The position numbers are program-made. DNA of 64,000 nt, taken from Escherichia coli O157:H7. GTDB taxonomy: Bacteria; Pseudomonadota; Gammaproteobacteria; Enterobacterales; Enterobacteriaceae. The DNA is taken from NCBI RefSeq assembly GCF_013167455.1, contig NZ_CP038328.1. The stretch is one strand, 5' to 3'. How positions within the stretch are numbered: the stretch's first letter is position 1; the number at the start of each line of letters is the position of its first letter. Below, in pieces: positions 3,001 through 6,000 of the stretch.

Positions 3001-6000
3001 AGCGCCCATGTCATTGACGAAACGCTGCGCCAGCGTACCAGTTCACTATTTCGCGGGATTATCCCTAAACCGGTGCCGCGTGAAGTGCTCGGTCAGTTAC
3101 TGGCGCACTATCTCCAACTGCAAGCCAATAACGATCTACCACTGGATGTATCGCAACTCAATGAAGACGCTCAGTTAATGGGGACGGAGAAGATCCACGA
3201 ATGGCTGGCATTATTTACACAACATGCCCTGCCGCTTCTCGATGAAATCGACATTGCCCGCGCCACTCAGGATAGCGAGAAAATAAAGCGTGCCGCGCAT
3301 CAGCTAAAAAGCAGTTGCTCGAGTCTGGGAATGCGTAGCGCCAGCCAGCTCTGCGCACAACTGGAGCAGCAGCCATTATCTGCCCCCCTTCCACACGAAG
3401 AAATTACACGCAGTGTTGCCGCTCTGGAAGCATGGTTGAATAAGAAAGACCTGAACGCGATTTGAATCAATATCAGCCAGTTAAGAATAACTAGAATAGT
3501 GGCATCTGGTATGCAACTTAACGGACTGGCAAAATCATGGCAGAGAAAAAAAGAACCCGCTGGCAGCGGCGGCCAGGCACGACGGGCGGCAAATTACCGT
3601 GGAATGACTGGCACAATGCCACGACCTGGCGTAAAGCGACGCAATTATTGCTGTTGGCAATGAATATTTATATTGCCATCACGTTCTGGTATTGGGTGCG
3701 CTATTACGAAACGGCAGGTAGTACGATATTTGTCGCCAGACCGGGAGGTATCGAAGGCTGGCTACCGATTGCCGGTCTGATGAATCTGAAATATAGCCTT
3801 GCAACAGGTCAGTTACCGTCCGTCCACGCCGCCGCGATGCTGTTATTGGTCGCTTTTATCGTCATCAGTCTATTACTCAAAAAGGCCTTTTGCTCATGGT
3901 TATGCCCGGTTGGTACGCTTTCTGAATTAATCGGCGCTCTCGGTAACAAACTGTTTGGTCGGCAATGTGTCCTTCCCCGCTGGCTGGATATTCCTCTGCG
4001 CGGTGTAAAGTATTTGCTGTTGAGTTTTTTTCTCTATATCGCGTTATTGATGCCTGCTCAGGCGATTCACTATTTTATGTTGTCGCCCTACAGCGTGGTG
4101 ATGGACGTTAAAATGCTCGATTTCTTTCGTCATATGGGGACCGCGACATTAATCAGCGTGACCGTTTTGCTGATTGCCAGCCTGTTTATTCGCCATGCCT
4201 GGTGTCGTTATCTTTGCCCATATGCGCGCTGATGGGCGTGGTTTCGCTATTATCGCCGTTTAAGATTCGTCGCAATGCCGAAAGTTGTATCGATTGTGGC
4301 AAATGCGCAAAAAATTGCCCATCACGGATCCCGGTCGATAAATTAATTCAGGTACGAACAGTGGAATGTACCGGCTGTATGACTTGCGTAGAGTCATGTC
4401 CGGTAGCCTCAACATTGACCTTTTCACTGCAAAAACCTGCGGCAAATAAAAAAGCCTTTGCGTTGTCTGGCTGGTTAATGACGCTACTGGTTCTGGGGAT
4501 TATGTTTACGGTGATTGGTTACGCAATGTATGCAGGAGTATGGCAAAGCCCGGTGCCGGAGGAATTGTACCGACGCTTAATTCCGCAAGCGCCAATGATT
4601 GGTCACTAAATTAGCAACAAGCGGAACATCACCTCGCACGGGGTGATGTTCACAAAATCACATTATTTTGATTTTGACATCATAACTTTCAAGCCCGGTC
4701 ATTTTTTCTCGCGCGGTGAAGCGAATTTCAGAGACTTCTTTCCCTGTATTCTTGTTCAGCTCGGCGATTTTTTGCGCGATAAAGTCGGCGATTTCCGTTT
4801 CGGCTTGTTTTTTAACTCTTCAATATTCACTGTTAACCTCTTCTGGTCTTAAAAGACAGCAACACGCCAGTAAGGTGTTGGTTCCCGGTACCCTGGTCAG
4901 GTAAGAAATGTTATAAGCCATCTCCCCGAAAGATTCAATAATCAACAGGTTATCGCTTACTATACATACAGCGTTGAAAAAAAATAAGACAGATATAAAA
5001 AAGGCTCCACAAGGGAGCCTGATATTATTTTGTGAAATCCAGCGGTGCATGGTCAGTGCGTATTTGCAGCGCGACGTTATCAAAGGTGATCATCGTCGAT
5101 TTACAAAAAATACACTTAGCGCCCAAAGGGTTTCGCTCCGTCACATCGAATGCCGATGTGCGGTACTGTGAACCATGACAACATGGACAGCGAAAATGGA
5201 GATGTTGAGTAATAACGGCAACCTTAGAGCGTAACTACGTTCGCTGCCGCGGGGCCACGTTGACCCTGCTCAATAGAAAATTCAACTTTCTGATTTTCGT
5301 TCAGCGTGCGGAATTCATTGCTCTGGATGGCGGTGAAATGGACGAAAACGTCTTTGCTGCCATCATCAGGAGTGATAAAGCCAAAACCTTTATCTGCGTT
5401 AAACCATTTTACTAAACCAGTCATTTTATTAGACATATTTTACTTCCTTCATTTTGGGCCTTTCGGCAAACAGGGCTTTAATACAGAAACTACTTAGTGT
5501 TCAGGAGAGAGACTCAAAAGAAGGGGATAATGCCTGATAATGAGAACTGCTTTAGTAAACTACTTTGTATGCTGTCTGTCTTTCCAACCGACGCAGCTAT
5601 TAACGCATGATAATTGAGATTAAGCAAATTTTATTTTAGCCGTCCGGCGGTCTTAAATATCGCTGGCTTTATTTTATTAACCCCGTATAGTGCAGCGCAG
5701 TATTTTCAGTAAGGAATTTGTTTGTCCCGTAAAATGACAGGAATTGTCAAAACCTTTGATCGCAAAAGCGGCAAAGGATTCATTATCCCCTCCGACGGTC
5801 GTAAAGAAGTTCAGGTCCATATTTCCGCATTCACTCCCCGCGACGCAGAAGTGCTTATACCAGGATTACGCGTGGAATTTTGCCGCGTAAATGGCCTGCG
5901 AGGACCAACAGCGGCAAATGTTTATCTCTCTTAATATGACGCTGCTTGTTTAAAGCTGACTGGTTTTATTGGCATAGTTCAATAGTCAACACCATGTATT

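Follow-up and report, generated by a model that had tools for sequence, protein, structure and literature searches.

Does Escherichia coli O157:H7 still make GnsA? The question is raised by a 64,000-nt stretch of an O157:H7 genome (RefSeq assembly GCF_013167455.1, contig NZ_CP038328.1; hereafter the window), where the start codon and the recognisable body of gnsA lie in different frames on either side of a run of six As. The run may be a genuine lesion, a site of recoding, a reversible switch or a miscounted homopolymer. We conclude, at a probability of about 0.93, that the lesion is real, abolishes gnsA function and has become fixed in one clone.

The role of GnsA, toxin or lipid regulator, is unsettled across the literature. 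Overexpression of K-12 GnsA or GnsB is reported to suppress fabA6(Ts) and a secG null (Sugai 2001, as cited in bioRxiv 2024.03.27.586906), and overexpression of GnsA to raise unsaturated fatty acids, for which the same preprint cites Sugai 2001 and gives new data. Another source lists YmcE and GnsA as a pair in which GnsA is the toxin (PMC8484670).

Anatomy of the gnsA locus

The gnsA remnant occupies 4658..4830 on the minus strand, 173 nt against the 174 nt of the intact gene, as delimited by alignment with K-12 gnsA, by RefSeq homologues and by the Pfam profile PF08178. It begins with a GTG at 4828..4830 (minus strand), shared with K-12. A Shine-Dalgarno-like AGAAGAGG (4837..4844, minus strand), read from the sequence and identical in K-12, lies 6 nt 5′ of this codon, across the spacer TTAACA. 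From the start the minus strand reads GTG AAT ATT GAA GAG TTA AAA AAC AAG CCG, and the frame so opened yields a 24-codon product, MNIEELKNKPKRKSPTLSRKKSPS, closed by a premature TGA (4756..4758, minus strand). This product retains the first 7 of the 57 GnsA residues and matches no Pfam family. The frame read from 4828 on the same strand gives EY, a stop, RVKKQAETEIADFIAQKIAELNKNTGKEVSEIRFTAREKMTGLESYDVKIKIM and a second stop; it holds the GnsA body, KKQAETEIADF...KIKIM (QAETEIADFIAQK is an example of a GnsA peptide), and runs to the original TGA at 4658..4660 (minus strand). The two frames join at the A6 run, 4808..4813 (minus strand; T6 on the plus strand), which is the site of the 1-bp deletion. 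The initial annotation had placed start and body out of frame at this run, with the body ending at TGA 4660..4658, and translation of the two frames bore it out on both points.

When the translated body frame was scanned, no ATG, GTG or TTG was found ahead of Met44, so a truncated GnsA cannot be made; a start at Met44 would yield merely a 14-aa peptide. A tblastn search over the whole window found no second GnsA-like gene.

Upstream of gnsA, and overlapping its start by 11 nt, lies ymcE (4820..5050, minus strand), intact at 76 aa and matching PF15939, YmcE_antitoxin, over positions 1–76 of 76 (179.7 bits). The T8 run inside ymcE (4977..4984, minus strand) is of the O157:H7 type; K-12 has TTTTTCTT there. 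The gene gnsA is the tail of a cold-shock cluster that includes cspG, over whose leader and coding region Rfam places a cspA thermoregulator (RF01766, 150.9 bits; 5170..5592, minus strand). Just past ymcF, AGGCTCCCTTGTGGAGCCT followed by TTTTTT (5002..5020, minus strand) makes a strong hairpin that resembles a terminator and falls within the 5′ portion of ymcE; transcripts begun at the cspG promoter would have to read through it to cover ymcE and gnsA. At the other end, between the convergent gnsA and yccM, the inverted repeat AACATCACC / GGTGATGTT (4625..4650, minus strand) is possibly a terminator hairpin; it lacks a T-run, and the terminator scan did not call it.

Comparison with K-12 gnsA and the family profile

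The gnsA gene of K-12 MG1655 (b4517) is 174 nt long, starts with GTG, carries seven As and encodes VNIEELKKQAETEIADF...KIKIM. A three-way alignment shows the window and strain PA20 departing from K-12 at two places inside the gene, a lost A (A7 to A6) and a synonymous G/A. The GTG AAT ATT GAA GAG that had been picked out as the start is thus identical to the K-12 start, and the seventh A that had been proposed to join the frames, as MNIEELKKQAETE, restores exactly the K-12 state. The initial annotation had also allowed for a reference gnsA with the same six As and a different start; K-12 has neither.

The repaired GnsA is identical over residues 1–57 to the crystallised protein (PDB 4XO1/4XO2). 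Against PF08178 (GnsAB_toxin, cut-off 27) it scores 122.3 bits, and the body frame by itself scores 108.1 bits. A functional member of the GnsA/GnsB family should have a single unbroken ORF of about 57 codons from its start codon, and in the window this ORF is broken; judged on its sequence, the gnsA found here is a pseudogene of the family and not a functional member.

Distribution of the A6 allele

We searched 5426 complete E. coli genomes with a 40-mer centred on the A tract, so that any 28-base seed spans it. The exact A6 40-mer is present in 294 of them, almost all O157:H7 and including the corrected EDL933 sequence. The corresponding A7 41-mer was counted with 11-mer seeds; low-complexity masking of A7 hides matches in megablast. 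It occurs exactly in 5102 genomes, O55:H7 CB9615 included, and in 312 more at 95–99% identity, so that no more than 18 genomes can carry a variant of the 41-mer other than these two. Among the best 30 records listed for the 401-bp gnsA locus, all O157:H7 or apparently so, identity is 100% throughout, and the O157:H7 copies of gnsA are clonal and identical. Within O157:H7, practically every genome carries the deletion.

In PA20, FDAARGOS_293, 17B6-2 and the corrected EDL933, the RefSeq entry for gnsA is a 173-nt pseudogene labelled "frameshifted". Since the tract is identical in 294 complete genomes and is so annotated, we take A6 to be an allele of the lineage and not a read error. A test against chance is inapplicable to a lesion in which a single base departs from the reference; its reality rests on the 294 genomes.

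The sequence of the window is clean in other respects. The closest genome, 17B6-2, is collinear with the window from end to end at 99.95% identity, with 29 SNPs and two indels, neither of the indels in gnsA. Twenty-eight of the SNPs cluster in a stretch of some 830 bp that holds prophage tail genes (33828..34656), a pattern suggestive of recombination between lambdoid prophages.

Origin of the deletion and exceptional strains

O55:H7 CB9615, from the lineage recognised as the precursor of O157:H7, has YmcE, YccM and TorS proteins the same as those of O157:H7 and an intact 174-nt gnsA. Because this gene is intact, with A7, the deletion postdates the split of O157:H7 from O55:H7.

Three strains depart from the general pattern. 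NJS001, a pig isolate with a 5.1-Mb genome, carries A6 together with O157:H7-type alleles of Etk, GfcC and GfcB, and fits a single origin of the allele. PV15-279 has O157:H7-type flanking alleles yet an intact, A7 gnsA, while its ymcE (1282..1511 of the extracted locus) is annotated as frameshifted, T8 having become T7; in O157:H7 it is normally gnsA that is broken and ymcE that is whole. The strain could have branched early, have reverted or owe its A7 to a polishing artefact. Its A7 implies that the deletion is either non-universal in the lineage or revertible, and, if the sequence is correct, an apparently frameshifted ymcE beside an intact gnsA sits oddly with strong GnsA toxicity. In CX12, A6 sits in a haplotype resembling that of K-12. 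We considered this strain as an independent origin of the allele and discounted it, as the same locus has a second homopolymer loss within 200 bp, a C4 run reduced to C3 in the hairpin lying 40 nt downstream of the gene (about position 1700 of the extracted locus); its A6 is likely an assembly error.

GnsA and GnsB in the O157:H7 lineage

A 57-aa paralogue, gnsB (b1550), lies in the cryptic prophage Qin of K-12, with about 74% nucleotide identity to gnsA. It ends the module cspI-ynfQ-ynfR-ynfN-gnsB, parallel to cspG-ymcF-ymcE-gnsA, and 5610..6668 of the K-12 Qin region that we extracted is a paralogous copy of 4658..5436 in the window. The parallel suggests that the chromosomal cspG-gnsA cluster and the Qin cluster have a common origin. 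The A tract of gnsB is interrupted, AAAAACAAAA, and hence less prone to slippage than that of gnsA.

At 90% identity or more, gnsB was found in about 2136 records. None of the three genomes sampled from the O157:H7 lineage had it, the single match in each being the gnsA pseudogene. Together, the pseudogene and the absence of gnsB from these three genomes imply that the O157:H7 lineage would have no intact gene of the GnsA/GnsB family.

O157:H7 belongs to sequence type ST11. A published survey puts the GnsAB_toxin domain at 6% of isolates in ST11 and at over 80% in the other types (PMC10790755), a rarity that we attribute to the frameshifted gnsA and missing gnsB of O157:H7. The frameshift is already annotated in RefSeq and mirrored in this statistic. 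Our literature search for gnsA with O157 found no paper discussing the lesion itself, neither term standing in the title or abstract of any paper that it listed.

Loss of function and the alternatives

What is observed is that the tract at codons 7–8 of gnsA is one A:T pair short of A7. Replication slippage on the A7:T7 homopolymer would account for the loss, and the slipped allele would then have been fixed clonally in the O157:H7 lineage. Translation from the normal GTG now stops after 24 codons, and the upstream partner, ymcE, is left intact. According to which published view of GnsA is taken, the change would either leave an orphan antitoxin gene or remove a small factor that raises unsaturated fatty acids. 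We infer that the phenotypic cost of the loss is small.

The alternative that fares best, and which we still hold to be unlikely, is leaky expression, and it can coexist with loss of function. Ribosomes slipping by −1 on the heptamer A_AAA_AAC, or on A_AAA alone, would re-enter the GnsA frame and give about 1% of normal output. The heptamer (4807..4813, minus strand) follows the X_XXY_YYZ pattern in phase with the GTG that begins at 4830, and a −1 shift leads precisely into the GnsA body. Wild-type GnsA would result if the lysine tRNA slipped by itself, and a K8N variant from a tandem slip. Reported rates make some leakage conceivable: 1-bp deletions in E. coli test genes are suppressed at 1–10% in aggregate by −1 shifts (PMC10861913), and C_AAA_AAA near a start codon gave 25–60% frameshifting in an overexpression vector (PMC1851650). 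Against this, A_AAA_AAC is reported to be far less shift-prone in E. coli than A_AAA_AAG (PMC5009743), and a stimulatory structure is absent, the 87 nt downstream folding at −15.7 kcal/mol (MFE), no better than shuffled sequences, which average −16.4 (z = +0.23). The ancestral gene, moreover, is plainly in frame, as the 5102 A7 genomes and O55:H7 attest; the frameshift arrangement is unconserved among relatives, and there is no sign of selection for recoding. If the leak were real, O157:H7 would keep a trace of GnsA yet escape its cost.

Far less probable is a phase-variable contingency tract, in which the A run would switch gnsA reversibly within populations. In its favour, the homopolymer lies in the 5′ coding region, and PV15-279 (A7 with O157-type flanks) and CX12 (A6 on a K-12-like haplotype) could be read as its products. 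However, the tract is short (6–7 nt) and stable, at 5102 A7 and 294 A6 genomes to at most 18 others, and the second homopolymer loss in CX12 suggests an assembly error there. A contingency tract should vary in length among close isolates; all 294 A6 matches are identical.

No more credit is due to readthrough of UGA into a YmcE-GnsA fusion protein. In the A6 allele the ymcE frame is the GnsA body frame, parted from it by the ymcE TGA (4822..4820) alone, so that the sequence runs ...EEVNSEY, stop, RVKKQAETE..., and ymcE is intact. This relation is a mere geometric consequence of the gnsA deletion, however; it is unconserved, and no readthrough signal was identified. Basal readthrough of UGA is low.

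Weakest of all, and negligible, is the supposition that the homopolymer was miscounted in the source genome and the real gnsA is intact: such miscounts are common, and the window does hold one indel found in no other genome (yccM, 4224) besides a variable poly-C tract, but the same A6 comes from many laboratories, the corrected EDL933 among its carriers, and is lacking from the sister lineage O55:H7, a phylogenetic pattern that an error would not follow.

Other frameshifts and features of the window

The neighbouring yccM (3537..4609, plus strand) is the contrasting case. It is split into ORFs 3537..4232 and 4202..4609 by a 1-bp deletion at 4224, one G being lost (ATATGGCGCGC to ATATGCGCGC), and is intact at 1074 nt in PA20, 17B6-2, EDL933, O55:H7 and K-12. 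A 40-mer of the window's version, searched in distant mode, occurs in none of 5411 complete genomes. The deletion is either an error of sequencing or a mutation private to this strain. A lineage-wide frameshift in gnsA lies 600 bases from one that is unique to the window, and cross-genome comparison alone separates such cases.

A poly-C tract in a prophage terminase large-subunit gene (45072..45082) has 11 Cs in the window, 10 in 17B6-2 and 9 in PA20; the gene is flagged as frameshifted in 17B6-2 and is intact in PA20. Unlike the gnsA tract, this one is truly length-variable among O157:H7 strains. The gene tccP2 (Tir-cytoskeleton coupling protein 2, about 25108..26141) is annotated as a frameshifted pseudogene at the homologous site in PA20 and 17B6-2, and contains 141-bp tandem repeats (25362..26120), seen as staggered self-matches. 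In the prophage part of the window, Rfam finds on the minus strand the ALIL pseudoknot that belongs to the frameshift site of an IS3-family transposase (52814..52930), the sRNA STnc100 (55460..55650) and a sok antitoxin RNA adjoining hokD (60701..60875). Three phage tRNAs are clustered at 55730..55976.

Implications

The gnsA lesion adds another lineage-specific pseudogene to those of O157:H7, and matters little beyond correct annotation. The A6 allele also serves as a clean marker that parts O157:H7 from its O55:H7 relatives. The predicted lack of any intact GnsA or GnsB gene could bear on the adjustment of membrane fatty acids in the cold, or on the toxin-antitoxin content of this food-borne pathogen.

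Comparison with known systems

With the loss-of-function reading as our preferred one, the closest known relative is gnsA of K-12 (b4517, formerly yccL), which encodes the 57-aa GnsA of structures 4XO1 and 4XO2; the window differs from it in having A6 for A7 at codons 7–8 and hence a stop after 24 codons.

The locus also recalls the reported type II toxin-antitoxin pair YmcE-GnsA (PF15939/PF08178; PMC8484670, PMC10790755). As in that pair, the gene of the antitoxin family precedes and overlaps that of the toxin family, and each matches its profile strongly. Here, however, the pair is no longer intact, the toxin-family gene being inactivated and the antitoxin-family gene kept, and the toxicity itself is taken from the literature.

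Finally, the A tract bears a likeness to programmed −1 frameshifting of the dnaX type (A_AAA_AAG), in that both have an in-phase, A-rich slippery heptamer and a −1 frame that encodes a functional protein. The gnsA heptamer differs in ending in C, which makes it a poor shifter in E. coli, and in having no downstream stem-loop, and the arrangement is derived and unconserved.
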